Virus record (IMG/VR): IMGVR_UViG_2609460125_000009
Source: a virus
Lineage: Duplodnaviria; Heunggongvirae; Uroviricota; Caudoviricetes
DNA: 64,000 nucleotides
Direction: 5' to 3' (one strand)
A program made the translations under genes and the position numbers. Below the pieces are notes generated by a model. It had not been told where the DNA came from and ran no database searches. It worked only from the letters and a program-made list of their open reading frames with translations. This document shows positions 3,741 to 27,274 of the stretch, piece by piece; position 1 is the first letter of the stretch, and each line of letters begins with the position of its first letter.

Positions 3741-4922
3741 ATGAGCCTTTATGTTATATCAACATTTAGGTTGGTCACAATATTGCCTGTTAAAAGTGGA
3801 ATTATCGTGAGCGAGCTGAAAGAGCTAATTACCGAATTAGATTTTGAACAATGGTTGGATACTGAAGGTATCGTTTATCGACGTGGAGGCGTGAGTACTC
3901 GCGGTCGTGAAGTGAATATCAAGGAGTGTCCGGTATGTGGCAGCTCCAACTGGAAGGTATATTTCAATCTGACCAGTGGCGTCGGTAAATGCTTCGCTGG
4001 TGATCATCCCGAAGAGATTCAGTTCAATAAGCTGGTCTTCCTCAAGCACTACAGCGGCAAATCACGACGACAGTTCGAGGAATATGTGCAGAACGCCCTT
4101 CTTTCCCAGGGGTGGGCACCAAAGAAAGAAGAGATAGTGCTTGCAAGCACAGTCGAGTTAGAGGGACCACTTGCACTCCCTCGTCATTACGAACTTCCTA
4201 TAGATGGCCGTCTTCCAGACTATCTGGTTGAACGAAACATATCGCCTGAAATGGCAAAGTATTTTGACCTACGATACTGCGTCGAAGGCAAGCACGCTTA
4301 TGTAGATCCGTATACAGATCAGGTTAAAGGACAGATATTCGATATGCGAATACTGATACCGGTTTACGATCTGGATGGGGTAATGAAGACATTTCAGGGG
4401 CGAGACATTACCGGTACAGCTGAACGTCGCTACCTCTTTCCTATGCAGCTTCCAGCTTCAGGTAAGTTTCTCTACAACGGCCATAATGCGGTCGGCAAAC
4501 AGACTGTAGTTGTCTGTGAGGGGGCGTTCGATGTTATGGGAGTTAAACGAGCTATTTTTGATGAAGAAACATTACGTGATTACGTGGAACCGATAGGAAC
4601 GTTCGGGATGCATCTATCTGGTAACACCACTCAGGATGCAGAAGATCAGTTGGGCGCGTTCCTGACGCTCAAGGCGCGTGGATTACGTAATGTGATCATG
4701 ATGTGGGATAGTGAAAAGCAAGCTATACGCAACACTATGGCCGCAGCCAGGCGACTGACCAGTATTGGTCTTAATGTCAAAGTAGCATGTTTGGGCGAGG
4801 AAGGACTCGACCCAGGCGATGCAACGCCAGAACAAATTATCAAAGCCTATTATCGGGCAAAACCGTATACCAAACAGTTGGAGTTGCAAAGCAAGGTTTT
4901 GGGCATTAAGGCGCTATCGTAA
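3741..4922 (+). CDS. DNA primase (zinc-finger + TOPRIM)
   Basis: CPVCGSS..C zinc ribbon, TOPRIM-like VVVCEGAFDVMG; start placed at the ATG with the conserved AAAAACACATG context (ORF in track begins at 3669). Confidence 0.8.
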   Translation: MSLYVISTFRLVTILPVKSGIIVSELKELITELDFEQWLDTEGIVYRRGGVSTRGREVNIKECPVCGSSNWKVYFNLTSGVGKCFAGDHPEEIQFNKLVFLKHYSGKSRRQFEEYVQNALLSQGWAPKKEEIVLASTVELEGPLALPRHYELPIDGRLPDYLVERNISPEMAKYFDLRYCVEGKHAYVDPYTDQVKGQIFDMRILIPVYDLDGVMKTFQGRDITGTAERRYLFPMQLPASGKFLYNGHNAVGKQTVVVCEGAFDVMGVKRAIFDEETLRDYVEPIGTFGMHLSGNTTQDAEDQLGAFLTLKARGLRNVIMMWDSEKQAIRNTMAAARRLTSIGLNVKVACLGEEGLDPGDATPEQIIKAYYRAKPYTKQLELQSKVLGIKALS

Positions 4923-4997
4923 CAAGTGCCGCTAAAATAAGTAGATGATTACTTATCTTTCTGTAAGAATACTTTCATCTGTTAGCTAGGAGTTGGT

Positions 4998-5780
4998 ATG
5001 AAAGACGAAATTCAGAAATTAGCCTGCGACATCATTGATAAAACTGGTTTAGAAATCAGCGAGTGCAATCGGCTAGACATCATTGAAAAAGCCGTAAAAA
5101 CAGCAATGGATCATATCGCCACTCGTTTGGTCGAGATCCCGCTACCGGGGCTACCTTATCTGAAGGTTAAGTTACACGTATGGGGTGAACCTTCTTGTGC
5201 ACGGCGTTATGCATTAGTTGTTTTTATTAGCAAAGAAAACCCGATCAGTCTTAAAGTGCAGGTTGGGGCATGGATGGATGGCAAAGTGATCTACACAAAT
5301 ACCGTTTTTTGTGCGTCAAATGACAGTATTATTGAAGAGGCTATTCAAGAATCACTTCTAACTATGCATAGCTTAGTTTTGCTGGAAGACAAGCAAAACT
5401 ACGAAGAGTACTTACGGTCGATAAAAGGTGAGAGAACATTGTCACTTAAAGCCGATTTCGTTACCCCGACAAACCTGTTGGAAGTCTTGCTTAATAAAGG
5501 GGCTAATGATGCCGTAAATGTAATCAGGGAGAGCGAATATTCGACTCTTTGGGACATGTGCAAAAGCCAGTTGGATCTGGTGCATATCGTTATTGATGCT
5601 GGGAAGGCATGTGATGGCGTAATGGCGGAATTTGCTGGGAAGGTGGTCAGGATTGCTAACGAATTACCGATGATAGAGCAAGAGGCCAAATCATACGCCA
5701 CCAATCATGTCACAGAGCTTCTTGTCCCCTATCGCTTAGAAAGCAATCAGCGCAAGATGGTTAGCTGGGGAAGTTGGTAA
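4998..5780 (+). CDS. hypothetical protein
   Basis: 260-aa ORF with AGGAG RBS. Confidence 0.55.
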   Translation: MKDEIQKLACDIIDKTGLEISECNRLDIIEKAVKTAMDHIATRLVEIPLPGLPYLKVKLHVWGEPSCARRYALVVFISKENPISLKVQVGAWMDGKVIYTNTVFCASNDSIIEEAIQESLLTMHSLVLLEDKQNYEEYLRSIKGERTLSLKADFVTPTNLLEVLLNKGANDAVNVIRESEYSTLWDMCKSQLDLVHIVIDAGKACDGVMAEFAGKVVRIANELPMIEQEAKSYATNHVTELLVPYRLESNQRKMVSWGSW

Positions 5781-5835
5781 TCTCTCCGCGCGTCGTTTTT
5801 TACGCAAATAACGATAGGTAAGTACAAGATTATTT

Positions 5836-6318
5836 ATGGCGGTAGTTGTGAAAGCTGATTTGTCAAAAATCCCTTCTATTTCAGGAAATAACGGTTATTC
5901 ACTTCGTTGTGAGGAAGTAAAGATAAACGGTGAGTCGGCATATTGCAGCTATTCCGTTTGCCAGCACACCATTCTTGCCTTCAAAGAAAACCGTCTTCCT
6001 CGAACTTCTTTCCAGTCGTGCGCAACCGCTATTAAAGCAGGCAAATGCAAGGCGTTAAAAATGATGGTTGAAGAGATTCGTAAAGGAGAATCTCTGTATT
6101 TCGAAGATATGACCGCGCTCATTAAGGAGGTTGAAGAACGGAATAAACAAGCCAGAACTATAAAACGAAAACGTGACAGTGTAACGATTAATAGCATGGT
6201 TAAGAAGAGCACCACATCACAAACAGCGATCACTGACGTGTATGCGGCGTTGCTTGAAGAAACAACAAAAGAAACACATGAGCAAATCGATCAACATATG
6301 GAGGCAAAACAACAATGA
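5836..6318 (+). CDS. hypothetical protein
   Basis: 160-aa ORF, stop overlaps ligase start. Confidence 0.5.
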   Translation: MAVVVKADLSKIPSISGNNGYSLRCEEVKINGESAYCSYSVCQHTILAFKENRLPRTSFQSCATAIKAGKCKALKMMVEEIRKGESLYFEDMTALIKEVEERNKQARTIKRKRDSVTINSMVKKSTTSQTAITDVYAALLEETTKETHEQIDQHMEAKQQ

Positions 6319-7637
6319 AAAAGTTGATCGCACTTAAGCATAAGCTGGACGAAATGAAAGCTATGGGAACCAATGCAAAAAAAGAGGCATTGGCCAACAT
6401 GGATGACTTCGAGCAAAGCATGGTTTCATTGATGCTCAACCCTTTCATCCGTTTTGGGGTAAAGAAATACAAAGTGGCAGAGCCGCTTAGTGAGTCCGTC
6501 CCAAGTGACGAAAAAGCCATTGATATACTGAATAAGCTGGCCTCTCGCGAGCTGACGGGGAACGCAGCAATAGCAGCTGTTGAGTCTATCGTGGCGTCAA
6601 TGTGCGCCGATGGGCAGGACGTGTTCCGTCGTTTCCTCTTAAAAGACCCGAAAGCAGGTGTTGGGATTAGCCTATGCAACAAGGTTTTTGAAAATCCCAT
6701 TCCGAAATTCGAGGTGCAGCTGGCGTCACCGTATAAAGAAAAAGGCGACAAATACCCCTTCAAGCCAAATCCTAAAGCCAAATGGCCGATGATTGGCAGC
6801 CTTAAGCTCGATGGTTTGCGAGTAATTTGCGAGGTTATTGTTGACGAGGAAGAGGTTAACTTCCTTTCTCGTACTGGTAATCCAATCACGTCTCTCGATC
6901 ACCTAAAGCCAGCCATGCTCGAATTAGGCAAACTTTCAGGCCACAAACACATCTTCTTCGATGGTGAAGGAACAGCCGGTTCATTTAACCAGTCCGTATC
7001 TGCATTGCGCAAAAAGAACGTGCAGGCAATTGGCGCTATTTATCATGTTTTCGACTTCTTCCTACCGGAATGGCGGGCACAGGCTAAATCCAAAGAGTAT
7101 GCAAAGACAGGTATGAAGCTGAAAGAGCGCCTGGCTATTCTCGTGGCGTTGTTCAAAAACGATCGCAGTGAAGACTACGCGCAAGACATTCACCTACATC
7201 CGTTCTACATCATCCATAGCCACGAAGACTTCATCGAACGCTTCATGAAACGCCTGGACGATAACGAAGAAGGGGAGATGGGCAAAGATCCGAACTCTGT
7301 TTACGAGTTTAAACGTACCCGCAGCTGGTGGAAGTTAAAAGACGAAGATTCAGAAGATGGTGAAATTATCGACTTTGAGCCGGGCGACCCGGACTCTGGT
7401 TTTGCCAACACACTTGGAAAAATTGTTATTCGTCTTGAAAACGGCGTCATCGTTCGTGCGAGCGGCATTAAGCATAAATATCTGGACGAGATCTGGAACA
7501 ACAAAGAGAAGTACCGTGGTCGTATTGTCGAGGTTCATTGTCACGAGAAAACACCGGACGGCAGCTTACGCCACCCACGACTGAAATGGCCGCGTTGCTT
7601 ACGCGATACAGAAGATCGAATCGGAGATAAAGAATGA
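6315..7637 (+). CDS. ATP-dependent DNA ligase
   Basis: KxDG adenylation motif (SLKLDGLR), size and context in the replication module. Confidence 0.8.
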   Translation: MKKLIALKHKLDEMKAMGTNAKKEALANMDDFEQSMVSLMLNPFIRFGVKKYKVAEPLSESVPSDEKAIDILNKLASRELTGNAAIAAVESIVASMCADGQDVFRRFLLKDPKAGVGISLCNKVFENPIPKFEVQLASPYKEKGDKYPFKPNPKAKWPMIGSLKLDGLRVICEVIVDEEEVNFLSRTGNPITSLDHLKPAMLELGKLSGHKHIFFDGEGTAGSFNQSVSALRKKNVQAIGAIYHVFDFFLPEWRAQAKSKEYAKTGMKLKERLAILVALFKNDRSEDYAQDIHLHPFYIIHSHEDFIERFMKRLDDNEEGEMGKDPNSVYEFKRTRSWWKLKDEDSEDGEIIDFEPGDPDSGFANTLGKIVIRLENGVIVRASGIKHKYLDEIWNNKEKYRGRIVEVHCHEKTPDGSLRHPRLKWPRCLRDTEDRIGDKE

Positions 7638-12993: not shown

Positions 12994-15102
12994 ATGTCTA
13001 AAAAACGTTCCATCAAAGAGGTTCAGGACTTCCGTGACAGTGTAAAACGAGTAGTCGCTCTCCTTTCAGGTAAAAACATCCCTGTTGCAGAACGAGGGGA
13101 CGACGCTTATGTACGCTATAACGATGATGGAGAGCCAATTCTCGTAAACATCCCATCAATCCCGGATAACGCAACACCGGCATTGATGAATGCTGTGCGC
13201 GGATTTCTCGATCATGAGGTTGCTCACATTTTGTTTACCGATATTCGTGTGTCCAACAAAATGAGAGAAAAAGGACGCGTTCCTTCCTGGTCGCTATGGA
13301 ATGCCTTAGAAGACGTGTTCATCGAGCGAAAAATGGGTCAGGTCTTTAACGGAACAAGACGTAATCTGATGGCAACTCAGCGCCTTATAATCGAAAAAGT
13401 CTTTAAACCAAAGGCTTCAGAGGCTATTGCTTATTGTGGCAAAGATCAGCGCGCGCTTTTTCTAAACTTCTTTCTCTGTCCGGTTGTAAGAGCCTGGGAT
13501 GGCCAAGCACCGTTCGTAGATTTCATGGATGAATATTGGCCTGTCATTGAGAAACCAATTTCATTATTAAAAGAACATGGTATCGATGTGGCCGTGCGTA
13601 ACATGTCTTGCACCGAGGATTGTGTAAAGGTGGCTGCGACCATAGCTAAGATCCTCAAAGACACTGAAAGTGAAAGCAAAGGTAAGGAGTCAGCTCCGGG
13701 AAAAACTTCCGATCCTTCAGACGCTGACCAGACGGATGCCTCTGGAGAAAACAATGAAGACAACGAAGATCATGAGACACCCTCAGCGTTAGATAATCAC
13801 AAATCTATCAAATCAGAATCACACAGTAAGCACAAACATGATAATAACGACGGTGATGATTCAGATAATTCTGAATCATCAGAAACAATATTCGATGATA
13901 CAGAAAATGATAAAGAGGTATCAGATTCTGATGCTTCTGATAACGCGGTGTCAGAATCATTTACCGCTGACCACGAAAAAAGAAAAACGACAGAAGACGG
14001 CTCTTCAGATATCCCAACTCCGTCAAAAATGAGTCTGGAAGAGGCTTTAGAGGAGCTGGATAGCATAGAAGATGAAGTCGGAGGCATGACAGAAGATGCT
14101 CTATCCGAAACGATTAAAAGCGAGTTAACAGAAACCTCGAAAAGCGAATACAGGCCATACAATCGCTCATACGACTTCATCGGCTCGATTGATCAGGCAG
14201 AAGCCCATATCAAACGGCTTATTAAAACATTCTCCGATATTGATTTAGGAGGATATCCAATCAGCCGCTATCGCATCGTTCCTGAAGGCAACCAGCTCTT
14301 CGACAAATATATTGAAAAGCATCTTTCGTCAGGTGTTTCGTCGACGCTGGCAAAAGACCTGGAGCGAGCAATAGCAAGCAGAAACAGAGTTCAGTTTATA
14401 CCGGGCCAGCGTCGGGGGCGCATTCATGGTTCTAGTATCTACAGATTAGCAATGAATGATGATCGCGTGTTTCGTAAAAAAGAAGAATCTAAAGCCGTTA
14501 ACGCCTGTGTTCAGCAAGTGATTGATTTATCAGGTTCAATGAGTGGTATAACGATACAATTGGCTCTTGCAAGTGCATATACCATCGCCGATGCCCTTGA
14601 TCGAATAAATGTTCCCAACATTATCACCGGCTTCACTACATTTGGTAGTCATATGGCGGCAGGAGAACTTAAGGCTGTCAAGTATGAGTTCTCTCGCTTT
14701 GAATCTTTAATGCTACCTATCATCAAAAATTGGAATGAAAAGGTAAATTCTCGCGAAGTTCGCTCACGTATGGGGTGCGTAGGCTACACATTCCCACTTC
14801 TTAATAACGTGGATGGTGAAAGCATAGCCAGCCTTGCATCGTTATTTTCCGGTCGCATGGAGGACAGGAAGATCATGCTTGTTCTGAGTGATGGCGCGCC
14901 GTGGGCTGTTGGGAGAGGTTTTGACGCTCATTTGCGTTCGGTTGCGAAGCAAATTGAAACGCAGACTGACATTGATTTGATGGCAATTGGCATCATGACT
15001 GACGCACCGGAGAGATTATACTCAAATCATGCCCTGGTAACGAGCGTTGATAGTCTTGGTTCATCTGTAGTTACTGAACTATCTCGTATCATTTTAAAGT
15101 GA
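12994..15102 (+). CDS. VWA-domain protein, CobT-like
   Basis: C-terminal MIDAS-like DLSGSMSG, long acidic/Ser-rich central linker; paired with the downstream AAA+ ATPase. Confidence 0.65.
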   Translation: MSKKRSIKEVQDFRDSVKRVVALLSGKNIPVAERGDDAYVRYNDDGEPILVNIPSIPDNATPALMNAVRGFLDHEVAHILFTDIRVSNKMREKGRVPSWSLWNALEDVFIERKMGQVFNGTRRNLMATQRLIIEKVFKPKASEAIAYCGKDQRALFLNFFLCPVVRAWDGQAPFVDFMDEYWPVIEKPISLLKEHGIDVAVRNMSCTEDCVKVAATIAKILKDTESESKGKESAPGKTSDPSDADQTDASGENNEDNEDHETPSALDNHKSIKSESHSKHKHDNNDGDDSDNSESSETIFDDTENDKEVSDSDASDNAVSESFTADHEKRKTTEDGSSDIPTPSKMSLEEALEELDSIEDEVGGMTEDALSETIKSELTETSKSEYRPYNRSYDFIGSIDQAEAHIKRLIKTFSDIDLGGYPISRYRIVPEGNQLFDKYIEKHLSSGVSSTLAKDLERAIASRNRVQFIPGQRRGRIHGSSIYRLAMNDDRVFRKKEESKAVNACVQQVIDLSGSMSGITIQLALASAYTIADALDRINVPNIITGFTTFGSHMAAGELKAVKYEFSRFESLMLPIIKNWNEKVNSREVRSRMGCVGYTFPLLNNVDGESIASLASLFSGRMEDRKIMLVLSDGAPWAVGRGFDAHLRSVAKQIETQTDIDLMAIGIMTDAPERLYSNHALVTSVDSLGSSVVTELSRIILK

Positions 15103-15197
15103 ACAAAACAGCCTTAACGATAAGTAACCACTTACGATAGATAATGATATATTTATATAAGAAGTTGAACGCTCATTAGAAAACAAAGGAAAAACGC

Positions 15198-16433
15198 ATG
15201 ACTACTACTGCACTGCAAAATGAAAACAATCCTTCTGATTACCTTGTTTGCAAGTGGTGCGGAAAATCATTTCACTATTTTAAGTCCCATGTTGCCAATG
15301 GTAATTGCGAGGGCATTCCTGAGTCAGTAAAAGATGCCGATCCTGACACCGTACTGAAAATGTACACAACACAGTTTCCAGATGAGCCAACGCTATCGAA
15401 AAAGGCACTTGATGCAATTCAAGCTAAACGTGCCGAGCAAAAAAGCGAAATGGCCAAATCATCTGGCGTGACCAGTAGCCCAGGCTACACAGGCACAGTT
15501 GAGTACAAGACAGATCTGGTCGCAGCTCACGAACTGCTAAATGTAACGGTGAAAGAACTCGGAACAAAACGTGGGACGCCGCTCATGGTTAGCGTCAACG
15601 TCAATACGCCGTTTCCAGAGTTCGTTCCAGAAGTGAAGAAGGGATACGTATATGGCGACTTCGAACTGATCAAAGACATTTTCATGATGCTTGAACTTGG
15701 CATACCTGGCTATTTGTGGGGTCATGCAGGAACAGGCAAATCGTCATTGCCTACACAACTATGTGCTTTGCTCAATCGTCCGTTGATCCGTGCCCAACAT
15801 ACAGCATCAATGGAAGAGGCACATGTTACGGGGCAAATTCTGGCGCGTGATGGCTCTACGTATTTCGAGCCTGGCTTGCTTGCGCTCGCAATGAAGCATG
15901 GCTGGGTTTACCTCGCGGATGAATACGACTTTGCGTTTCCACAAATTCTTGGCGTGTATCAGCCAGTGCTGGAAGGTGAAGCGTTAGTCATCAAAGAGGC
16001 GACTCCAGAATGGCGTCGCATTACTCCGCATGAACGGTTTGCTTTCATTGGCACTGGCAACACGAACGGATCTGGTGATGAAACCGGCTTGTACCAGGGT
16101 ACAAACATCCAGAACGCCGCGAACTTTTCGCGTTTTGGCATCGTTTCGAATGTGAAATACATGAGCAAAGAGGCAGAGATCAACATGTTGATAAATGCCG
16201 GTATCGTGGATGAATACGCAGAAAAGATGGTTAAGTTTGCCGGTATCGTTCGCGATGGATACGAAGAACACCTTATCAGTCAGCCAATTGGCCCTCGTGA
16301 ACTTTTGTTGTCGGCCAAGATTGGAATGATGCGAGGCGACTTTGTGACAGGTATTGAGCGTTCTTTCATTAACAAACTCCCTTCAGCTTCTGCACAAGCG
16401 GCTCGTGAAGTTGTTCAAAAAATATTTGGTTGA
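15198..16433 (+). CDS. AAA+ ATPase, CobS/MoxR-like
   Basis: Walker A GHAGTGKSSL, Walker B VYLADEYD, sensor region; conserved AAAGGAAAAACGCATG start context. Confidence 0.7.
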   Translation: MTTTALQNENNPSDYLVCKWCGKSFHYFKSHVANGNCEGIPESVKDADPDTVLKMYTTQFPDEPTLSKKALDAIQAKRAEQKSEMAKSSGVTSSPGYTGTVEYKTDLVAAHELLNVTVKELGTKRGTPLMVSVNVNTPFPEFVPEVKKGYVYGDFELIKDIFMMLELGIPGYLWGHAGTGKSSLPTQLCALLNRPLIRAQHTASMEEAHVTGQILARDGSTYFEPGLLALAMKHGWVYLADEYDFAFPQILGVYQPVLEGEALVIKEATPEWRRITPHERFAFIGTGNTNGSGDETGLYQGTNIQNAANFSRFGIVSNVKYMSKEAEINMLINAGIVDEYAEKMVKFAGIVRDGYEEHLISQPIGPRELLLSAKIGMMRGDFVTGIERSFINKLPSASAQAAREVVQKIFG

Positions 16434-16613: not shown

Positions 16614-19600
16614 ATGAAGGCACTGATGGTTCGAACTGACTTCTCACTTGGGGAGTCGGCTTTAAAAGCAGAAAACGCGGTGAAGATTGCCAGAGAAGCT
16701 GGCTACACCGCTGTAATTTCAGCAGATAGCATGAATATTGCGAGCGTTATTCCACTACAACGTGCCGCTGGTGACGACATGGCGGTTATTTGTGGTGTGA
16801 AACTAAACATCGTTGATGATCCCACATACGAGCACCGGGCTAAACTTGCTAAAGAGTCTAAGGGATGTATGGAATCATTGGAGCGAGGACGTAACTACTC
16901 GTTTACCGCTCTAATTAAAAATGAGAAAGGATATCGCGACATCTGCGAACTAATGACGGCGGCCAACACACGAGAACAGTTCTACTTTGTACCGCGTCTC
17001 TCGCTCGAACAGTTGGTTTCTACATATGCCAAAGGCAACATCATCCTGCTTACTTCCGACATCGGTAGCGTGTTCCAACGCAACGATTTTGCAAAAATCA
17101 TAAGCACACTGATTACAGCGGGTGGAAAAGACAACTTCTATAGTGTGGTTTATCCGCACCCTACCCCATTCTACGACCAGATTAACGTCCGGGCGATGAA
17201 AGTCGCCAGCGCATTGAAAATAGAGCCAGTGGCGTTCTATCCCGCTTATTACGAATCGATCGACGATGCAGACATTAAAGACATTGCGCACATGGTTACG
17301 AACAACATAAAAATCGACCAGCCGCATCGTCTGCGTATCCCCCACCAGCGAGATAACGCCATCAATGGTCGTCGCCATCTCCTTGAGGCGCTTAAAGCCT
17401 TCTCCGTTCGCATGGATGTGCCGGTAACAGCTGCAATGGCCTCAACAACGCAGGACTCCATTATCGATGCCTGCACATGGCGCTGGCATGAATTGCCACC
17501 AGCACTGCCCAAGATGGCAGACGACGAACCTGCAACGCTGATGAAACTGGCTGTTGCAGGGCTGCGTAAACGTCTTACCACAAAAGAGTTTGGATACACA
17601 CCACCTGCTTCTGAGAACAGGGTTTATGTTGAGCGGCTAAAGTACGAAATGGACACGCTGACTCGCCTGGGATTCTGTGGTTACTTCCTGATGGTACGCG
17701 ATCTGATGAATCACAGCCGTGAAACTGGCATTCCTGTCGGGCCTGGTCGTGGTTCCTCTGCCGGTTCTCTGGTGGCGTGGTGCATAGGCATAACCAACGT
17801 CGACCCAATCCGTCACGGTCTTCTGTTTGAGCGTTTCATCAACCCTGAGCGTCTCGACTTGCCGGATGCTGACTTGGACTTCAGCCAGGCACGTCGCCAT
17901 GAGGTGATCGAGTATCTGAATGAACGCTACGGCGAAGATTACGTTGCAGGCATTCCGAACTTCACCTATCTGGGCGCGGCATCTGCGCTGCGTGACACTG
18001 CACGTATTTACGGTGTCGATGCTGCGGATATGGCGGTATCCAAAGAGTTCAAGAATATGGAGGACGACAGCCTGTCTCTGGAAGAGCTGCGCGAGCAACT
18101 GGCCAGCCTGGACAAATACGCCACGAAAAACCCGGAAGCGTTCAAAGCGGCGTGTAAGCTGCAAAGCCTGATGCGTGGTTTTGGTCGTCACGCTGCGGGG
18201 ATGATCGTCGCTGGCGTTCCATTAGTAGAGCGCACGCCCGTCGAGCTGCGTGGCAATGCTCGATGTATTGCGTTCGATAAACGTTACTGCGAGGCGATGG
18301 GGCTGATTAAGTTGGACGTTCTCGGTCTGGCAACACTCGATCTTCTGGATAGCGCGAAACGCTACATCAAAGAGAGTACCGGTGAAGACATCAATCTCGA
18401 CGCTATCCCACTGGACGATCGCAAGGTTCTGGATGGGTTCGCTGCAGGGTACACGCAGGGCGTATTCCAGCTGGAGTCCGGCCCCATGCGTAAGCTGCTT
18501 AAAGATCTGGGCGGTGGCATCGAGCCAATGAGTTTCAAAACCGTTGTCGCAACTACCGCCCTCTTCCGACCGGGACCGATTCAATCCGGCATGTTGGATG
18601 ACTATGTTTCCGTTGCGAAAGGATTTATGACGCCTACATCACTACATCCTGTCTTGGATGAACTGACCTCTGAAACAAATGGAGTGATTCTCTATCAGGA
18701 ACAAACGATGAACGCAACAAGGCTTCTTGCTGGTTTCACAATGGCCGAGGCGGATGGTGTGCGTTCAGCAATCGGTAAGAAGAACATGGAAAAGATGAGG
18801 AGCATGGGTGAGAAATTTGTCATTCAGGCTCAAGCTGGGTGGATCGACGTAGAGCTTGAAAATGGCGCAATACAACGGATTCATCGCGCAGAACATTTTA
18901 AATGCGAGGACGGTACTCTGAGGACAGTTGAAGAGGCGTTGGAGCATGGAGTGAAGCTGCCAATGCCAGTTGTGCGCGTTACAACGTCACATCCAGGTCT
19001 GTCTGAGACGAAGGCAAAAGAGATATGGACTGCATTTGAGAAAAACGGAGCCTATCAGTTCAATAAATCACACTCCGTTGCTTATTCTTTAATCAGTTAT
19101 CAGTCTATGTGGCTAAAGACGCACTACCCTGCTGAGTTCTTCGCAGCTGCGCTCACCATTCTGGGCGAGGATAAGCATCAGGGGCTGGTGAAGGATGCGC
19201 TGACCTATGGCATTCGCGTATTGCCACCAGACGTTAATGTGTCATCTAACCGAATTGAGATCCGCACACTCGAAGACGGCAGTCAGGCACTGTATGCGCC
19301 ATTCTCTGCTGTGAAAGGCTGTTCTGAAAATGGTTGTCAGGCAATTATGCGTGCGCGTGAGAAAGTTGGTGGCAAATTCGAGTCAGTGGCACAATTCGAT
19401 GAAGCGGTCGAGAAGCGTGCATGTAACAGTCGTGTACGCGAGTCGCTTCATAAAGTAGGGGCTTTTGCGTCAATTGAGCCAGGCAGTCTGCCAGCAACTG
19501 ATCCTGAACGACTGCGCGACCAGGCTGAGCTGATGGGCAATCTCATCATTGACGCTGTTAAAGCATCACGTCCGTTCGAAATGAATCCTAAGCGTTCTGC

Positions 19601-20132
19601 CGAAATCAACGTACTCATGACACGTATGGCGGCTGAAATGGGCTTGGGTGAGGAGTTGATACGCCCGACTATTGGTATTAAACCCAAAATCATGATCATT
19701 CTGGACAATGCGAACGGCAATGACGCTCGTACCGGCTACTTCATGGAGAACGGATACGACGACTTTAAGGCAAAACTACTGACAGTTGGAGATCTGCGCA
19801 TGGGCGATCTTTATGTCACGGGTGTTTGTAAGAAGGTTAAGGACAAAGAGAAAGACTATACCAAAGACGAGATAGGCCAGTTCACAGACTTTATGCGGGA
19901 AGAAATTAATCTTGTACGACCAACCTACATTTTGACGTGTGGTAGTCGTTCAACCGCACTATTTAACAATAAGAGTAAACCATCAGATCTGATTGGTCGT
20001 AAGGAGTACTTCCCAGAGCTTGATGCAACCGTCTTCTACGGATTTAACCCGAATATCCTGTACTTCCGACCGGAAGAAGGAGAGCGACTGGAGGCCATTC
20101 TGGCTGATATCGCGGAGACAATAAATAAGTAA
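16614..20132 (+). CDS. DNA polymerase III alpha subunit homolog (DnaE-like) with a divergent C-terminal domain
   Basis: 1172 aa; N-terminal PHP domain, polymerase core motif GPGRGSSAGSLVAWCIGIT; conserved AAAAACACATG start context. Confidence 0.9.
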   Translation: MKALMVRTDFSLGESALKAENAVKIAREAGYTAVISADSMNIASVIPLQRAAGDDMAVICGVKLNIVDDPTYEHRAKLAKESKGCMESLERGRNYSFTALIKNEKGYRDICELMTAANTREQFYFVPRLSLEQLVSTYAKGNIILLTSDIGSVFQRNDFAKIISTLITAGGKDNFYSVVYPHPTPFYDQINVRAMKVASALKIEPVAFYPAYYESIDDADIKDIAHMVTNNIKIDQPHRLRIPHQRDNAINGRRHLLEALKAFSVRMDVPVTAAMASTTQDSIIDACTWRWHELPPALPKMADDEPATLMKLAVAGLRKRLTTKEFGYTPPASENRVYVERLKYEMDTLTRLGFCGYFLMVRDLMNHSRETGIPVGPGRGSSAGSLVAWCIGITNVDPIRHGLLFERFINPERLDLPDADLDFSQARRHEVIEYLNERYGEDYVAGIPNFTYLGAASALRDTARIYGVDAADMAVSKEFKNMEDDSLSLEELREQLASLDKYATKNPEAFKAACKLQSLMRGFGRHAAGMIVAGVPLVERTPVELRGNARCIAFDKRYCEAMGLIKLDVLGLATLDLLDSAKRYIKESTGEDINLDAIPLDDRKVLDGFAAGYTQGVFQLESGPMRKLLKDLGGGIEPMSFKTVVATTALFRPGPIQSGMLDDYVSVAKGFMTPTSLHPVLDELTSETNGVILYQEQTMNATRLLAGFTMAEADGVRSAIGKKNMEKMRSMGEKFVIQAQAGWIDVELENGAIQRIHRAEHFKCEDGTLRTVEEALEHGVKLPMPVVRVTTSHPGLSETKAKEIWTAFEKNGAYQFNKSHSVAYSLISYQSMWLKTHYPAEFFAAALTILGEDKHQGLVKDALTYGIRVLPPDVNVSSNRIEIRTLEDGSQALYAPFSAVKGCSENGCQAIMRAREKVGGKFESVAQFDEAVEKRACNSRVRESLHKVGAFASIEPGSLPATDPERLRDQAELMGNLIIDAVKASRPFEMNPKRSAEINVLMTRMAAEMGLGEELIRPTIGIKPKIMIILDNANGNDARTGYFMENGYDDFKAKLLTVGDLRMGDLYVTGVCKKVKDKEKDYTKDEIGQFTDFMREEINLVRPTYILTCGSRSTALFNNKSKPSDLIGRKEYFPELDATVFYGFNPNILYFRPEEGERLEAILADIAETINK

Positions 20133-20138
20133 TAAAGA

Positions 20139-20162
20139 AAACCCGCCTGTTGGCGGGTTTAT
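20139..20162. terminator. bidirectional rho-independent terminator
   Basis: aaaacccgcc-tgtt-ggcgggttt between convergent genes. Confidence 0.65.
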
Positions 20163-20435
20163 AAAGAATTATGGCGCTTGTTGAGGAAGTCACTCCTCTT
20201 ACGCACTTTGTTTTGCCATGCCGGCAGTTAGCTTCTGCCTTTGACTATTCATGCGGCAACCCCGCATTTCGCCACAATGGGCAATTCACTTTTATGGAAT
20301 AAACTGGCCGTTGTGTCGATTTAATTAGCATGGCCTTACCATGCTAATTTATTCAACTTGTACAATCCTACAAATCTATCCACTCAGGCTTACACCGTCT
20401 TCGTTATTGTAGAAATGAGGATCATCAGCGTTGAA

Positions 20436-20651
20436 TCAGCTTAGAGCAACGACATTTGCTGCTGCTGGGCCTTTAGCCCCATTCTCGATAGAGAATTCGA
20501 CCTGCTGGCCTTCTTCCAAAGTGCGGAAATTATTACTCTGAATTGCCGAAAAATGTACAAAAACATCTTTACTGCCATCAGCAGGAGAAATAAAGCCAAA
20601 GCCTTTATCAGAGTTAAACCATTTTACTAAACCAGTCATTTTATTAGACAT
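20436..20651 (-). CDS. cold-shock protein, CspA family
   Basis: [21 protein letters not shown] ... VFVHFSAI with RNP1/RNP2-like motifs; start moved to the internal Met matching the CspA N-terminus; ~300-nt leader upstream. Confidence 0.85.
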
Positions 20652-20980
20652 AGATATTACCTTCTTAATTTTGTGAGCCACATAGTGCGGCGAGAATTTG
20701 ATCTGTATAGATTGGGACTTACTTAGGCACTTAAGGAGGAGACTCACGAAGAAGGGAAATCAGAAGATAACACTGAACTGAGACTGCTTTACTAAAACTG
20801 CTTACATAAGGTCTGTCTTGCAAACCAACGATGCTATTAACGCATACCCCTTCTTTTCATGCAACCTTTATTTTTCAAAGATAACTAATTTTTGTCACCA
20901 TTGGTTTAGTAAACGTTAACGAACCAGACGATGCCAGACACCTTTACAGAGAACAGATGCCCGCCAATTGGCGGGCATCA

Positions 20981-21544
20981 TTATGCGCATTTCGCAATAT
21001 CTTTGCGGCGTTTAATCAGTTTCTCCGCAATTTGCTCTATTTCGTTGAAATCTTTCGAGACGCTGTTTCGAAGCGCCAGATTCCATTTACTCAAAGTTCG
21101 GGCATTTTGGACAATTTGATCGCCCTCTTTAAGTCGTCCGTTATTCATGAGCCATTCAGCCACATCAGCCCAATCCCAGAGAGGAGACTGGCCTTTTATG
21201 CGTTGTACAGGGCAAGGGAAGTCGCCGCTTCCGCGCTTACCGTCTTTGAGCAACGCCACTGCCTGGCGAGACAGGTCTGTCAGTTCCGCGATATCGCTTA
21301 AGCCCACAAGAGCCGAGTCGACGGATTCAACAATTGCACCGATACCGGCTGATTCAATATTGTCGACCGCAGATGCGATAGCTGCATCAAGTGATTGTGC
21401 TTCGCGGTCAAATTCTACATAGACGGAGTTTCCATATGCGCAAATTAGCGCATCGTCACAGCCGTTTTGGTACAGCGCGTCTTCCAGTCCTTCCGTCTCA
21501 TACGATACGCCTGAGAGCGTCAGAGTGAAGTTATAAAGCGCCAT
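20981..21544 (-). CDS. hypothetical protein (187 aa), possible DNA-binding protein
   Basis: ORF with internal start MALYNF; terminator hairpin just downstream (20958-20980). Confidence 0.5.
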   Translation of the reverse strand: MALYNFTLTLSGVSYETEGLEDALYQNGCDDALICAYGNSVYVEFDREAQSLDAAIASAVDNIESAGIGAIVESVDSALVGLSDIAELTDLSRQAVALLKDGKRGSGDFPCPVQRIKGQSPLWDWADVAEWLMNNGRLKEGDQIVQNARTLSKWNLALRNSVSKDFNEIEQIAEKLIKRRKDIAKCA

Positions 21545-21604
21545 AGTTTTCCTTTGAAGATAGTTGGACAGTTTCTGCAAAAGGCGGCTAATGCCGCCTT
21601 GAAA

Positions 21605-21829
21605 TCATTTACAACGATCAACCATTCGTTTGATCTGTTTGGCATGGTTTTCGGGATTACCCGGAGTCGACCATACGCTCATTTGGTGAGTTTTGTGTTC
21701 ACCTTCTGGATTACCGCATCGCAGTCTGCAAAAACAATGTGCAGCACCACCAGCAGCTACCCAGATCCAGCCTTTACTTAATGCATAGTCAATGGCTGCT
21801 TGAATATGCTTATTCGGATGTTGCTTCAT
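21605..21829 (-). CDS. hypothetical Cys/His-rich small protein (74 aa)
   Basis: ORF in operon with the 20981-21544 gene; HCFCRLRCGNPEGEHKTH cluster suggests metal binding. Confidence 0.45.
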   Translation of the reverse strand: MKQHPNKHIQAAIDYALSKGWIWVAAGGAAHCFCRLRCGNPEGEHKTHQMSVWSTPGNPENHAKQIKRMVDRCK

Positions 21830-22083
21830 TCGCCTCCGATAATAGTATTCTATTCACAGTGTTGACATCTGTCAACGGCGACTGAATTTCATCCGTTCAT
21901 GCCACACCACCATCCATCTCATGTATGTGACCTAAAGATGGTCAGCACAGCTTACCAAAATAAGACAACTAATTATCTTCGGTGATCTCAATATCTTCCC
22001 CTGAACAAAGTTGACATGACGCCATAAACCCGTTCTCTGTTTGATATAATTGATACAGATTTTATAAGTAGGAACCTATTAGA

Positions 22084-22515
22084 GTGAACACTGATATTTT
22101 TTCTAAAATCATGGCCGATCTGGAGTTCGACCGCGACAACCTTGAGGAAGTATGGCGTAAACAGCCACGGCTTTTAATGGAGTATGGGTCAAAACTAGCG
22201 CAGGCAGATCGAGATGTCGCAGAGGCAAAACTTAACCTTGAAGCTGTTGAAGCAAAGCTATACGACACAGAGCGTAAGAACTTGAGTATGAACGGCATTA
22301 AGTTCAACGAGTCTGTACTGGACGCTAAGGTTAAAACAAACCCACAGTATCTGTCTAAACGGCAGAAGTTGGATGAAGCACGGCACATCGCAGACATATA
22401 CAAACATGCTGTCGCCGCCTTTTCGCATCGCCGAGACATGATCGTTCAGGCGTCAAAGATGGCCATCGTTGAATTAGAGCGATTAGGCTCTGAACGCTTT
22501 ATTACTCCCCGTTGA
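22084..22515 (+). CDS. hypothetical protein (GTG start)
   Basis: 143-aa ORF, AGGA upstream; first gene of the long plus-strand block. Confidence 0.5.
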   Translation: MNTDIFSKIMADLEFDRDNLEEVWRKQPRLLMEYGSKLAQADRDVAEAKLNLEAVEAKLYDTERKNLSMNGIKFNESVLDAKVKTNPQYLSKRQKLDEARHIADIYKHAVAAFSHRRDMIVQASKMAIVELERLGSERFITPR

Positions 22516-22632
22516 TTTTTGATAGATAATAAGTAAGTACTGATCTATCATTTAACAGCTCGAAAGAGCCACGAATGAACGAAAGCCCAACGCGCATAGC
22601 GCCATCGGCCAAATCACAACAAGGAGAAACAC

Positions 22633-23661
22633 ATGTCTAAGACATTACTTGATTTGCTTAACAAAACTCGTGAAGACATTGCCGCCAAACGTGGCAACAA
22701 CGTTGATCTGACTCGCTTAAAAGACGGCGTCAACTATATCCGCATCTTCCCGAATAAAGACGACCCAAACGGTAAGTTCTTCCAGACTTTCGGTATGCAC
22801 TACGTTAAGTATCAGAACGAGGAAGGTAAAGAAGCAACCAACGCTTATATTTGTGAGCAACATACTCACGGTCGCGCTTGTCAGCTATGCGAAATGGTGA
22901 TGGAAGGTCGCGCTCGTCACAAGGGTAACAAAGCAATGGAAGAACGCATCGGTCAAATGCGTGCCACTCCTCGCTACCTGGTCAACGGCATTCTTTCTGC
23001 TCGTGAGGATTTCGCAGATGCTGAGAAATGCCAGTTAATCGAGCTGCCGTCTACTGTATTCGATGATATCTGCAAAGCAATCACCGAAGACATCGCTGAT
23101 GATATCGGCAATCCACTGAGCAAAGAGGAAGGCTACGCATTCCTGATTAAACGTACTGGCTCTGGTCGCGATACCAAATATGACGTCTCGCCTAAGCGTA
23201 AAGTCTACAAAGGCGATATCGAAGATAAATTCTGGAACACCCAGCATGATCTGATCGCATACGCAAATCAGGCTGATGAAACTCGTCTTCTGTCGACAGT
23301 TCGCACTATGGGTCGTCTGATTGGCATCGCTGCACCAACTGCCGCAGCATCTGCACCAGCAATTTCCTCAACCGCGAAAACATCGGCTGCGGCACTACCT
23401 GGATTTGGCTCTGTCACTGGTCATACAGAAGGAGCGACGGCTGTAGCAACCGCGCACACACCGGCTTCTGAACCAACCAGTCTGGTTGATGAAGAAATCC
23501 TCCGTGCCGTTGAAACTGAATTTAAACCAGAGGCAAGTTCCGCTGCCGTTGCCGTATCAGTCAAAGAGTCTGAAGCAGTCGCAGCGACATCTGTAGCAAC
23601 CGCATCTGCGACGGAAGATGAAGGTCTGGATGACCTACTGAGAGAGCTGGACTCTCTGTAA
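22633..23661 (+). CDS. single-stranded DNA-binding protein, gp32-like
   Basis: Zn-binding C..H.H...C..C cluster (CEQHTHGRACQLC), Ala/Ser-rich linker and acidic C-terminal tail DEGLDDLLRELDSL. Confidence 0.65.
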   Translation: MSKTLLDLLNKTREDIAAKRGNNVDLTRLKDGVNYIRIFPNKDDPNGKFFQTFGMHYVKYQNEEGKEATNAYICEQHTHGRACQLCEMVMEGRARHKGNKAMEERIGQMRATPRYLVNGILSAREDFADAEKCQLIELPSTVFDDICKAITEDIADDIGNPLSKEEGYAFLIKRTGSGRDTKYDVSPKRKVYKGDIEDKFWNTQHDLIAYANQADETRLLSTVRTMGRLIGIAAPTAAASAPAISSTAKTSAAALPGFGSVTGHTEGATAVATAHTPASEPTSLVDEEILRAVETEFKPEASSAAVAVSVKESEAVAATSVATASATEDEGLDDLLRELDSL

Positions 23662-24934: not shown

Positions 24935-27274
24935 ATGGCAAAAGGAAAATCCGCACTGGCACTTGCTCTGAAAAAGAAAATCGGTAGCAACGACGAAATT
25001 CAGAAAGTAACTCATTGGATTGACACAGGCTTTCCTCCGTTAAACAAAGCTATTTCCGGTCGTTACGATGGCGGTTTCCCATGTGGTCGTATCGTAGAAG
25101 TATTCGGGCCACCAAGCGCGGGGAAATGTGTTACCGCAGACACCATGCTGCTGACGGAGCGTGGAATGGTAACAGTGAAAGAGTTGTTTGAGATTGAAGG
25201 GTACAAAGCGACATGCACTACTCGCGATGTAGAGCATAACGTTGGACTCATCAATGAAAATGGCGTGATAGAGAAGACCTCACACCTGACATGGAACAAC
25301 CGTCGCAAATTCAAGCGTATTAAGCTGGCATCAGGCGGTTATATCGAGGCTACGTTCCGTCACCCAATCCGTGTGGTTGACGACTTAGGTAATGTCGTCT
25401 GGCGACATGCTGAAAAAATCAGTGTAGGCGACACGATTCCTTCAATGGTTGGCACACATCAATTCGGCGATCAGCACCTGGATGCCAATATCGCAAAACT
25501 GATGGGCTATTTAATTGCTGACGGATACGTGGCCTCTGAAAATTCAGTGAATTTTTCTAACACAGATCCTTTCATCAAGGATGAGTACTACCGCCTCATT
25601 TCGCTGGTATCAGACAAGATGCCAGTTACGAGAAAACATAACGGCTCGGAAGACCATGTGCTGTTTAGCAAAGAGGTGCGTTCGCTGCTTTTTAAAGAAT
25701 ATGGTCTGGAGTATGAGAAAGCTGCTGGCAAGCAGGTTCCGTTGAGTGTGCGTCGCGCCAATAGCGAGGCTCAAATTGCATTCCTTCGCGGCTACTTTGA
25801 GCTGGAATGCCACGTCAATGATGGTCGCTGCATTGAGGTTGTGAGCGCGAGTGGGCTGCTGCTACAGCAAATTCGCCTCATGCTCCTGAATCTGGGGATT
25901 ACGTCAACTATCTCTGAAAAACACGTCGCGGGTTATGAAAATACATATTACCGGCTGTCATTCAGTGGCTCTAATTACGACCTTTTTCTGTCAACGATTG
26001 GTTTCGAATCTCCGGCACGTTTATCAGTGGCAACCAAACGGGACATTGGTTTTGACCGCACTTACTCAGGCTATGTTCCGCACATCAGCGGCTTAGTGAA
26101 ATCACTCTACGAGTCGCTCACCAAGACCACCCGTGAAGACTACGCTCTGGTAGACCACGTTATTGGCCGCGGCGATCGTGTCGGAATAGACAAACTGCGA
26201 GAAATCTATGTCTCCTTCATTGGCAGAAAGAATCGTTTTAACGAGCATCTGTTTGCACAACTGGCAGCGGTAATTGGCTCTAACTTGTTCTACGACGAAG
26301 TCGTGGCTATTGAGGAAGGTGAAGCACCAACGTTCGACGTAGCGATGCCGGAAACACACTCTTTCTGGTCTAACGGGATTATCAGCCACAACACATTCCT
26401 TGCAACAGCAGCGATGATCTCCGCTCAAAAACAAGATGGTCTGGCGGTATTCCTCGATCATGAAAACAGTTTTGACGTTGGCCTGGCTGTAGCCAATGGC
26501 CTGAACGCAGATGAGGATGACGGTCAGTGGGTATACAAGCAGCCAGATACCTTCGAAGACTCTGTAGAGTTGATCGGCACAATACTTAAATTGGTTCGTG
26601 ATGAAGAGCTTATCCCCGAATCAGCACCTATCTGTATCGTGGCTGACTCTCTTGCGTCTATGGTTCCGAACTCCAAAGCCGAGAAGTTCGAAAAGATGGC
26701 TGAAGGCACAGCCAAAGACAAAGATCAGCTAAACATGAACGACAATACGGCACTGGCTCGTGCGACGAGTGCGAACTTCCCTACTCTGGCTTTGTGGGCA
26801 CGCAAATACAACGCCTGCATCATCTTCTTGAATCAGGTTCGCACAAAAATCGGTGTAATGTTTGGCGACCCTACTACGTCGCCAGGTGGAGATTCACCGA
26901 AGTTCTACGCTTCTGTACGTATCCGTCTTGGTGCATCGGTGATGAAGGATGGTAAAGAGAAGATCGGCCAGGACGTAGGCGCAGAATGCATCAAAAACAA
27001 AGTTGCACCACCGTATGGCAAATGCACCTGGAAATTCTACTTCGATCCTACTCGTGGCCTCGACGTTATCGAGTCGCTCGTCGAGTACATGCTGGAAGAA
27101 GGATACCTGCCAAAGAACGCCAGCGGTCGAGTAGAAATTGGTGACAAGAAATACACCAAATCACAGATCGTCGAGATGTATCGGGAGAAGCCACTAGCTG
27201 AAATCATTGCGGCTTTACAGGCAATCGACGACCGGAGATCAAAAGACAATCCCACCGAGTCAGTAGAAGAGTAA
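24935..27274 (+). CDS. RecA-family recombinase interrupted by an intein
   Basis: Extein: GPPSAGK|TFLATAAM P-loop and FLNQVRTKIGVMFGDPTTSPGGDSPKFYASVR, closely matching the RecA core; 422-aa insertion between K64 and T. Confidence 0.85.
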   Translation: MAKGKSALALALKKKIGSNDEIQKVTHWIDTGFPPLNKAISGRYDGGFPCGRIVEVFGPPSAGKCVTADTMLLTERGMVTVKELFEIEGYKATCTTRDVEHNVGLINENGVIEKTSHLTWNNRRKFKRIKLASGGYIEATFRHPIRVVDDLGNVVWRHAEKISVGDTIPSMVGTHQFGDQHLDANIAKLMGYLIADGYVASENSVNFSNTDPFIKDEYYRLISLVSDKMPVTRKHNGSEDHVLFSKEVRSLLFKEYGLEYEKAAGKQVPLSVRRANSEAQIAFLRGYFELECHVNDGRCIEVVSASGLLLQQIRLMLLNLGITSTISEKHVAGYENTYYRLSFSGSNYDLFLSTIGFESPARLSVATKRDIGFDRTYSGYVPHISGLVKSLYESLTKTTREDYALVDHVIGRGDRVGIDKLREIYVSFIGRKNRFNEHLFAQLAAVIGSNLFYDEVVAIEEGEAPTFDVAMPETHSFWSNGIISHNTFLATAAMISAQKQDGLAVFLDHENSFDVGLAVANGLNADEDDGQWVYKQPDTFEDSVELIGTILKLVRDEELIPESAPICIVADSLASMVPNSKAEKFEKMAEGTAKDKDQLNMNDNTALARATSANFPTLALWARKYNACIIFLNQVRTKIGVMFGDPTTSPGGDSPKFYASVRIRLGASVMKDGKEKIGQDVGAECIKNKVAPPYGKCTWKFYFDPTRGLDVIESLVEYMLEEGYLPKNASGRVEIGDKKYTKSQIVEMYREKPLAEIIAALQAIDDRRSKDNPTESVEE
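25127..26392 (+). mobile_element. intein with LAGLIDADG homing-endonuclease domain inside the RecA P-loop
   Basis: Begins with Cys directly after GPPSAGK, ends ...SHN followed by Thr; internal LAGLIDADG-type motifs MGYLIADGYV and FLRGYFELECHV. Confidence 0.75.

Follow-up and report, generated by a model that had tools for sequence, protein, structure and literature searches.

Two adjacent minus-strand genes of a virus of the class Caudoviricetes (IMG/VR record IMGVR_UViG_2609460125_000009) were analysed within a stretch of 64,000 nucleotides, referred to here as the window, and are best explained, with a probability of roughly 0.55, as an autoregulated type II toxin–antitoxin (TA)-like addiction or defence module. 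Gene A (positions 21605..21829) encodes a putative toxin of 74 amino acids and was deposited as 'HicA toxin protein'; gene B (20981..21544) encodes a putative antitoxin and autorepressor of 187 amino acids and was deposited as 'putative antitoxin HicB'. A TA-like module is the best fit to the combination of a mobile promoter/operator cassette, a basic A encoded together with an acidic DNA-binding B, TA systems as neighbours, expression in the lysogen and the joint decay of both genes. The generic layout of a type II TA system was found, namely two small genes in one operon, a winged helix–turn–helix (wHTH) domain in B and a palindrome at the −35 box. The locus is a member of the PADLOC candidate system PDC-M06. 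As an observation it is not new, since both its annotation and its expression have been reported before.

By megablast, the surrounding sequence (19500-23000) is 99.9% identical over its full length to Escherichia phage Cyrano (OV696614), and the alignments of the same query to Salmonella phage SSU5 and its relatives were partial. In the adherent-invasive E. coli strain LF82, Cyrano is the plasmid pLF82; this phage-plasmid is SSU5-like and produces virions (PMC9928086).

Operon layout, regulatory signals and expression

Gene A precedes gene B with a spacer of 60 nt, and both are preceded by Shine–Dalgarno sequences (GGAGG for A, AAGGA for B). A promoter scan located a sigma-70 promoter of the operon (TTGACA-17-TAGAAT, 11 of 12 consensus positions) at 21847..21875 on the minus strand. 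An intrinsic terminator on the same strand (20956..20979) was located by a terminator scan; it begins 2 nt past the stop codon of B and has a 10 bp stem with eight GC pairs and a T-rich tail (−22.3 kcal/mol). An earlier note on this DNA, made from the letters alone, had described a two-gene operon with its own terminator, and this description was borne out, with the promoter in addition. On reading the sequence, no separate promoter for B was found in the A–B spacer.

An operator-like, perfect palindrome, GTTGACA-GA-TGTCAAC, overlaps the −35 box (21861..21876, minus strand). Its distance from the ATG is the same (−47) in Cyrano, Prodigiosinella and Providencia, and the alphaproteobacterium Polymorphobacter likewise has it upstream of A; in SSU5, Histophilus and the Yersinia pestis plasmid pMT1 it is degenerate, with one mismatch or as a half-site. 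The sequences around it were unrelated in every case compared. A palindrome that is kept amid unrelated flanks is best explained as the operator of the conserved wHTH of B, and it is accordingly described here as a putative operator through which B would regulate its own synthesis.

The spacer between the genes contains a GC-rich hairpin, AAGGCGGC-ATTA-GCCGCCTT (21581..21600, minus strand), followed by TTGCAG with a short T run. A GC hairpin occupies the same place in five enterobacterial loci (Cyrano, Prodigiosinella, Providencia, pMT1 and SSU5); its sequence differs in all five, so that the structure and not the sequence is conserved. RNA-seq of the LF82 lysogen in LB gave 30-fold (CYRAN_51, gene A) and 14-fold (CYRAN_50, gene B) levels over the transcriptional background of the prophage (PMC9928086), and Misson et al. 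counted CYRAN_50/51 as morons under the names HicB/HicA (PMC9928086). Given this hairpin and an RNA level that falls twofold from A to B, transcription may end in part at the hairpin or the mRNA may differ in stability between the genes; the hairpin may thus be a partial terminator or mRNA-stability element and perhaps sets the A:B ratio.

Family, distribution and the variable site

Both proteins matched the paired PADLOC models (A, PDC-M06A, 1.2e-19; B, PDC-M06B, 1.3e-32), with the two genes adjacent, on the same strand and in the order A then B. In all 13 of the A-carrying contexts examined, A was directly followed on the same strand by a homologue of B. No paper on PDC-M06 was found in the literature, and for the pair in pMT1 or SSU5 the literature held nothing beyond the moron table for Cyrano.

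The pair sits at the position equivalent to that in Cyrano in SSU5, Y. pestis pMT1 and E. coli pYPE3-114k. Elsewhere its settings vary, and most of the 13 contexts are hot spots of mobile elements. The Prodigiosinella copy lies in an integrative island of the P4-like kind, with a RelE/HTH TA pair and TnpB nearby, and that of Histophilus in a P2-like prophage, where it adjoins YefM/YoeB and B has 152 amino acids. Shewanella carries the pair in a lambdoid prophage as an opposite-strand insert amid tail genes, and Pseudoalteromonas carries it in an integrase/IS110 island. Chromosomal copies were found in Sodalis and in Providencia stuartii, in the latter with housekeeping genes on either side, and alphaproteobacterial plasmids carry it in Polymorphobacter (B, hhalign 8.5e-31) and Sulfitobacter (B, hhalign 4.7e-7). 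On the Polymorphobacter plasmid p29362-2 a gene for a 613-residue AAA-family ATPase (4896-6737) starts exactly at the end of the B homologue; here the system may exist in a version with three genes.

Searches of PLSDB found A in 299 plasmids and the adjacent UvsY-like core gene in 861. The plasmids with A are mostly 95-120 kb in size and non-mobilizable. The counts depend on lineage: by genus, A and the core gene were found in 63 and 63 plasmids of Yersinia, 81 and 91 of Enterobacter, 80 and 219 of Escherichia, 13 and 346 of Klebsiella, and two and 49 of Salmonella, respectively. These counts, together with the variable content of the site described below, rule out that the pair is a core gene of SSU5-like elements, as which the earlier note had allowed that its homologues might turn out; the genes are accessory. 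Among complete E. coli genomes the pair occurs in 110 of 5,426 (∼2%) and is plasmid-borne in every case; the PGAP labels for it there are 'HTH/AlpA transcriptional regulator' and 'hypothetical protein'.

Gene B was found in ∼34 more Escherichia plasmids than A. The sole decayed copy inspected, on the E. fergusonii plasmid pRHB41-C20_2 (2956-3516), is a B-only remnant with an open reading frame (ORF) that is still open and is annotated 'DNA-binding protein'; one deletion took A, the promoter/operator and about the 20 first codons of B. The B-only form may be common in Escherichia plasmids.

The interval between the gene for the polymerase III α subunit (dnaE; 16614-20132, plus strand) and the UvsY-like gene (22084-22515, plus strand), the first of a long plus-strand block, is a cargo hot spot with modular contents. 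The site is empty in PhiR41_1, the flanks of which are 91% identical; it holds only the cold-shock gene csp in a Klebsiella element, only the A–B pair in pYPE3-114k, pMT1 and SSU5, and both in Cyrano and 63 near-identical plasmids. The csp gene and the pair are therefore two independent cassettes. The earlier note had treated them as one accessory island; gain of a single island as a unit is ruled out, since csp and the pair are found apart at this site in relatives. Its description of the genes as moron-like holds for each cassette: each carries a promoter and a terminator of its own and is present in some relatives but not in others (299 versus 861 plasmids for the pair), and lysogen RNA-seq gave 14- to 30-fold levels for the pair.

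Predicted properties of the proteins

Protein A is basic (isoelectric point 9.5) and contains four cysteines and six histidines. The earlier note had called both proteins Cys/His-rich, which is correct for A; B has four cysteines and no histidine. Profile searches and structure prediction, which had been named there as checks, yielded the PDC-M06A/B matches and confident folds for both proteins. The model of A (mean predicted local distance difference test score, pLDDT, 88.4) consists of a helix, three strands and a helix (α-β3-α); the loop that joins strands 2 and 3 contains a further, short helix. In a database clustered at 90%, 55 close homologues of A were found, none with Pfam domains, and a profile of the family retrieved 727 cluster representatives at E<=1e-3 from 1.84 billion proteins. 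Within the family H4 and P56 are invariant and K7, W21, H31, C38, T55, A63 and C73 are conserved at 90% or more; position 48 is a cysteine in most members and a histidine in enterobacteria, and many members end in C-x-H. This pattern suggests that A probably has a structural metal or disulphide site (C38, H45/H48, C73) linking the strand 2-3 loop to the last helix. The nearly invariant H31 lies just before strand 2, a position that is presumably, from the HicA literature, that of the essential catalytic histidine of HicA; it is possible, judging from conservation, that H31 is catalytic.

A kinship of A with the RuBisCO small subunit was also considered. Of 41 close relatives, 31 gave sub-threshold matches to PF00101 (RuBisCO_small; best 1.2e-4), and the name 'ribulose bisphosphate carboxylase small subunit' is attached to one NCBI record of the family. 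The signal drops to 8 of 55 sequences in the broader family and is attributed to chance; the RuBisCO name is probably a misleading annotation seed.

Protein B is acidic (isoelectric point 4.5), and its model (pLDDT 91.4) has three parts. The N-terminal domain (residues 1-75) is predicted to be ferredoxin-like (β-α-β-β-α-β) and carries two strongly conserved acidic motifs, C29-D30-D31 and D46-R47-E48 (GCDDAL/FDREA). The middle part (residues ∼80-135) is a winged helix of the AlpA/Xis/MerR/TerS type with 8c3t, 4j2n and 7lxs as structural neighbours, and the C-terminus is a hairpin of two long helices. At least 273 homologues were found; the PHROG and NCBI label is excisionase/transcriptional regulator. 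Matches of B to CagE_TrbE_VirB (E 0.0016-0.011) were weak, below the cutoff, and were dismissed as noise.

Interpretation and alternatives

A mechanism can be proposed from these features in which the toxicity and RNase activity of A, its binding to B, the binding of B to the operator, the metal site and the biological role of the pair are all putative. A would be a growth-arresting effector, most plausibly an RNase, which B would neutralise via its N-terminal ferredoxin-like domain. A dimer of B would bind GTTGACA-N2-TGTCAAC over the −35 box with its AlpA/Xis-type winged helix and so repress the operon. With the module expressed in lysogeny, the plasmid prophage would be stabilised through post-segregational killing, infections by competing phages would be aborted, or both. 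Such a module would resemble the addiction modules of phage-plasmids (phd-doc of P1; the KacT-like and RelE/ParE-like pairs of Cyrano), which are likewise small two-gene cassettes expressed in lysogeny from a plasmid prophage that depends on stable inheritance; the protein families of A and B are unrelated to these, and post-segregational killing by the pair is only putative. That A has specifically the RNase mechanism of HicA is a tentative proposal, with the odds somewhat against it.

A number of results weigh against the TA-like reading. PDC-x systems are unpublished, unvalidated candidates (PMC11811056), and another PDC pair showed no defence when assayed (PMC12409345). Autorepression by a wHTH protein is a typical trait of plain regulators as well. 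The spacer hairpin and the higher level of A mRNA would favour the putative toxin over the antitoxin, which is unusual unless translation or protein stability compensates. The remaining points concern the deposited names, which are used both in the Cyrano deposit and in the published survey (PMC9928086). No match to HicA_toxin (PF07927) was obtained at E<=10 in Pfam with A itself or with the scanned members of two alignments of its family (A1, 41 sequences; A3, 55 sequences), and sequence and profile searches of the PDB with A and B found no HicA or HicB, the profile searches being empty. A Foldseek search of the PDB with the model of A gave a best E of 0.58, with HicA outside the top 50. The only signal from hhalign was a local match of 20 columns to a HicA profile, in which the N-terminal HPNKxI of A falls on PRHPxxEI before the last helix of HicA; the two motifs are topologically non-equivalent, and the match was therefore not counted as homology. 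B failed both HicB tests (PF15919 and PF05534), having neither the HicB-type N-domain nor a C-terminal ribbon–helix–helix (RHH) or Xre domain.

Further comparisons agreed with these results. Neither HicA nor HicB was matched when the query and members of A1, A3 and a further set (A2) were scanned against Pfam and NCBIfam, and hhalign found no global match to E. coli HicA, E. coli HicB or the HicA profile of 26 sequences. That profile is narrow, with identities of at least 66%, since only close relatives are returned by the word-indexed search. The HicAB systems (6hpb, 4p78, 5yrz, 6g26) are like the A–B pair in that a small basic gene comes first (58-74 amino acids) and an acidic DNA-binding protein second, and presumably also in a conserved histidine at the start of strand 2. 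A differs from HicA in its Cys/His-rich loop between strands 2 and 3 and its invariant N-terminal HPNK, both of which HicA lacks. HicB combines a partial RNase-H-like N-domain with an RHH or Xre helix–turn–helix, unlike the ferredoxin-like domain and AlpA/Xis-type wHTH of B. Canonical HicA/HicB membership is thus unsupported by the Pfam, NCBIfam, PDB and hhalign searches, and because the sequence tests for HicA and both tests for HicB failed the pair was not filed as HicAB. The modelled fold of A appears only weakly HicA-like, and a more fitting reading of the deposited names is 'HicA-like fold, non-HicB partner'.

It is doubtful, if conceivable, that PDC-M06 is a new TA or abortive-infection family rather than a HicAB subtype. 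Its toxin would then be a metal- or disulphide-stapled mini-nuclease with the invariant signature HPNK...H...C...TP...H...C, and its antitoxin would join a ferredoxin-like neutralising domain, an AlpA-type wHTH and a helical dimeriser in a new architecture. The antitoxin would read a palindrome that is almost unchanged from alpha- to gammaproteobacteria, and the module would travel as cargo among hot spots of phage-plasmids (including pMT1), P2-like prophages, P4-like satellites and lambdoid tail modules, protecting the host or stabilising the element.

The DNA-binding domain of B can also be accommodated by a regulatory module without killing, in which B would be a transcription factor of the AlpA/Xis type, acting on the promoter of the pair and perhaps on further genes, and A a small metal-binding cofactor or modulator, such as an anti-repressor or sensor. 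An AlpA/excisionase-type wHTH is the sole recognisable domain of B, in agreement with its PHROG and NCBI names, and the operator-like palindrome at the A–B promoter, the excess of A over B mRNA, the lack of a significant sequence match of A to any toxin family and the lack of HicA in its Foldseek result are all compatible with such a role. This explanation is nevertheless regarded as unlikely. Module and operator move together between unrelated bacteria, where they occupy chromosomes, tail modules of prophages and satellites, so that a regulator would have no constant external target, and in cargo hot spots the pair is found in clusters with genuine TA systems. It was marked by the curators of PADLOC as a candidate for defence, it is assumed because of an association with defence islands, and the basic/acidic pairing and the loss of A together with the 5′ end of B suit a TA system better than a plain regulator. 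The assignment of the two genes could also be reversed, with B as the effector through its GCDDAL/FDREA domain, in which C29-D30-D31 and D46-R47-E48 could be catalytic, and A as its inhibitor; the first gene is the more highly expressed, as is typical of antitoxins. This is very improbable given that it is B which has the DNA-binding domain, that B is acidic and A basic, that 5′-truncated solo copies of B persist without A, and that the best structural neighbours of A are toxins.

The matches of both proteins to PDC-M06 would also fit defence or anti-defence that does not follow TA logic: the N-domain of B would sense a phage component and free or activate A, or the pair would shield Cyrano from host defence. 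Expression in the lysogen is in keeping with this, as are the AAA ATPase gene directly 3′ of B in Polymorphobacter and the location of the pair in a P2-like prophage and a P4-like satellite; such elements are reportedly defence hot spots, a concept said to be that of Rousset et al. in 2022. Against it stand the different PDC pair that gave no protection when assayed and the stand-alone chromosomal copies outside islands in Providencia and Sodalis, and such a role is judged improbable, with the reservation that abortive infection is in many cases the work of TA systems, so that this alternative overlaps the best explanation. The earlier note had proposed a TA or a defence/anti-defence unit. A TA-like addiction or defence module remains the best-supported reading in view of the PDC-M06A/B matches, the mobility, the charge pairing, the conserved operator and the HicA/HicB deposit; anti-defence has nothing specific in its favour.

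Phage-plasmids of the SSU5-like group, of which Y. pestis pMT1 is a member, occur commonly in E. coli, Klebsiella, Enterobacter, Shigella and Salmonella; their stable inheritance and their benefits to hosts are poorly known. The pair is present in 63 of the 63 Y. pestis pMT1 records searched. If it is indeed an addiction or defence module, it would be a concrete factor in the persistence of SSU5-like elements, and the PADLOC candidate PDC-M06 would become a characterised system. The HicA/HicB annotation, which may spread, is corrected by this analysis: a weak fold resemblance of A is all that lies behind it, and the partner is not HicB.

The csp cassette

The csp gene (20436..20651, minus strand; start ATG at 20651) encodes a CspA/CspG-type cold-shock protein of 71 amino acids. 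It matched Pfam CSD (1.2e-33) and the NCBIfam CspA subfamily (133.8 bits, cutoff 130) and just missed the cutoff for CspG (138.4 bits, cutoff 144). The protein is 73% identical to K-12 CspA, and the alignment to CspA showed both RNP1 (KGFGFI) and RNP2 (VFVHF) to be present. The Cyrano record (OV696614) has no coding sequence (CDS) at csp, and PGAP names the identical gene cspG in 63 plasmids. Since csp is not annotated in the Cyrano record, the published transcriptome-based list of morons could not score it; the csp genes of the co-resident prophage Tritos reached 59-93-fold in the LF82 moron survey (PMC9928086). The gene adds a presumably cold-inducible RNA chaperone to the cargo, which was missed in both the deposited record and the survey.

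The Rfam cspA thermoregulator RF01766 matched 20411-20829 on the minus strand (185.7 bits, gathering score 78, E 1.3e-50). The promoter and leader elements were placed by a column-by-column alignment with the upstream region of K-12 cspA. The promoter (20836..20895, minus strand) comprises an AT-rich UP element, a −35 box TTGCAT (20864-20859) and a TG-extended −10 box GTTAAT (20841-20836). It is followed by a 5′ untranslated region (UTR) of ∼177 nt (20652..20829, minus strand), a thermoregulator of the cspA type with a cold box. Kept with respect to K-12 cspA are the UP element, the −35 and −10 boxes, the cold-box region around the transcription start, internal blocks of the leader and the Shine–Dalgarno sequence. 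The earlier note was right that a CspA-family gene with a regulatory leader is present, as Pfam CSD, NCBIfam CspA and Rfam RF01766 agree; the leader length of ∼300 nt given there has to be revised to ∼177 nt according to Rfam and the K-12 alignment, the rest of the upstream gap being promoter and UP element.

A bidirectional terminator hairpin (20139..20160, −15.6 kcal/mol) found in the terminator scan serves dnaE on the plus strand and probably the csp transcript on the minus strand, where the sequence after the hairpin is UUUUCUUUAUU. The terminator stem of the Rfam thermoregulator model is not present at csp, and the strong hairpin found at 20321-20354 lacks a minus-strand U-tract; the csp transcript therefore probably extends to 20139-20160. 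The ∼275 nt directly 3′ of csp (20161-20435) are co-conserved with it, at ∼75% identity, in the lambdoid phages HannyBb and Tritos. This segment contains the 20321-20354 hairpin (12 bp, with T-rich sequence following on the plus strand only) and a plus-strand ORF of 43 codons (20171-20302) with no ribosome-binding site and no family match, and could be a long 3′ UTR, a small RNA or a small gene.

The cassette is an ordinary, standard member of the cspA family. At the DNA level it is ∼75% identical to the csp cassettes of lambdoid phages, including that of Tritos, a prophage of the same host. Prophage-borne paralogues of cspA are well known. The csp gene has the CSD fold, the KGFGFI and VFVHF motifs, the promoter, the UP element, the cold box and the thermosensor 5′ UTR in common with E. 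coli cspA; it differs from cspA and from the prophage paralogues (cspB, cspG and cspI; CspB/CspI of Tritos) in sitting on a phage-plasmid and not on a chromosome or lambdoid prophage, and its leader is ∼18 nt longer than the 159 nt leader of cspA. The csp gene would be transcribed from its own cspA-like promoter, the ∼177 nt thermosensor leader would raise translation and mRNA stability at low temperature, and the lysogen would gain an additional RNA chaperone in the cold.

Neighbouring genes

The genes csp, B and A all lie on the minus strand between dnaE and the plus-strand recombination block, where the earlier note had placed them. They are not chance ORFs, given the CSD match of csp and the hundreds of homologues, confident folds and lysogen transcription of A and B. 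The GC skew becomes negative at 20-22 kb. The UvsY-like gene is followed in the plus-strand block by genes for a gp32-like single-strand-binding protein, an exonuclease and RecA.

Upstream of dnaE, two plus-strand genes (12994-16433) were deposited under the cobalamin-related names 'dimethylbenzimidazole phosphoribosyltransferase' and 'cobalamin synthetase'. Their products were read here as a vWA protein, in which there is a long acidic linker, and an AAA ATPase resembling MoxR/CobS, and the cobalamin names look doubtful.

The RecA-like recombinase (24935-27274, plus strand) has 779 amino acids, compared with 358 in SSU5. A homing-endonuclease insertion lies behind the P-loop region, and PGAP labels an orthologue 'LAGLIDADG family homing endonuclease'; the RecA of the window looks like one that contains an intein. 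On the Klebsiella plasmid pKqs_SB610_2 (1-1371) a gene for a NUMOD4 HNH endonuclease lies directly 3′ of a dnaE CDS, which suggests a homing-endonuclease insertion within or beside the gene for the polymerase III α subunit.

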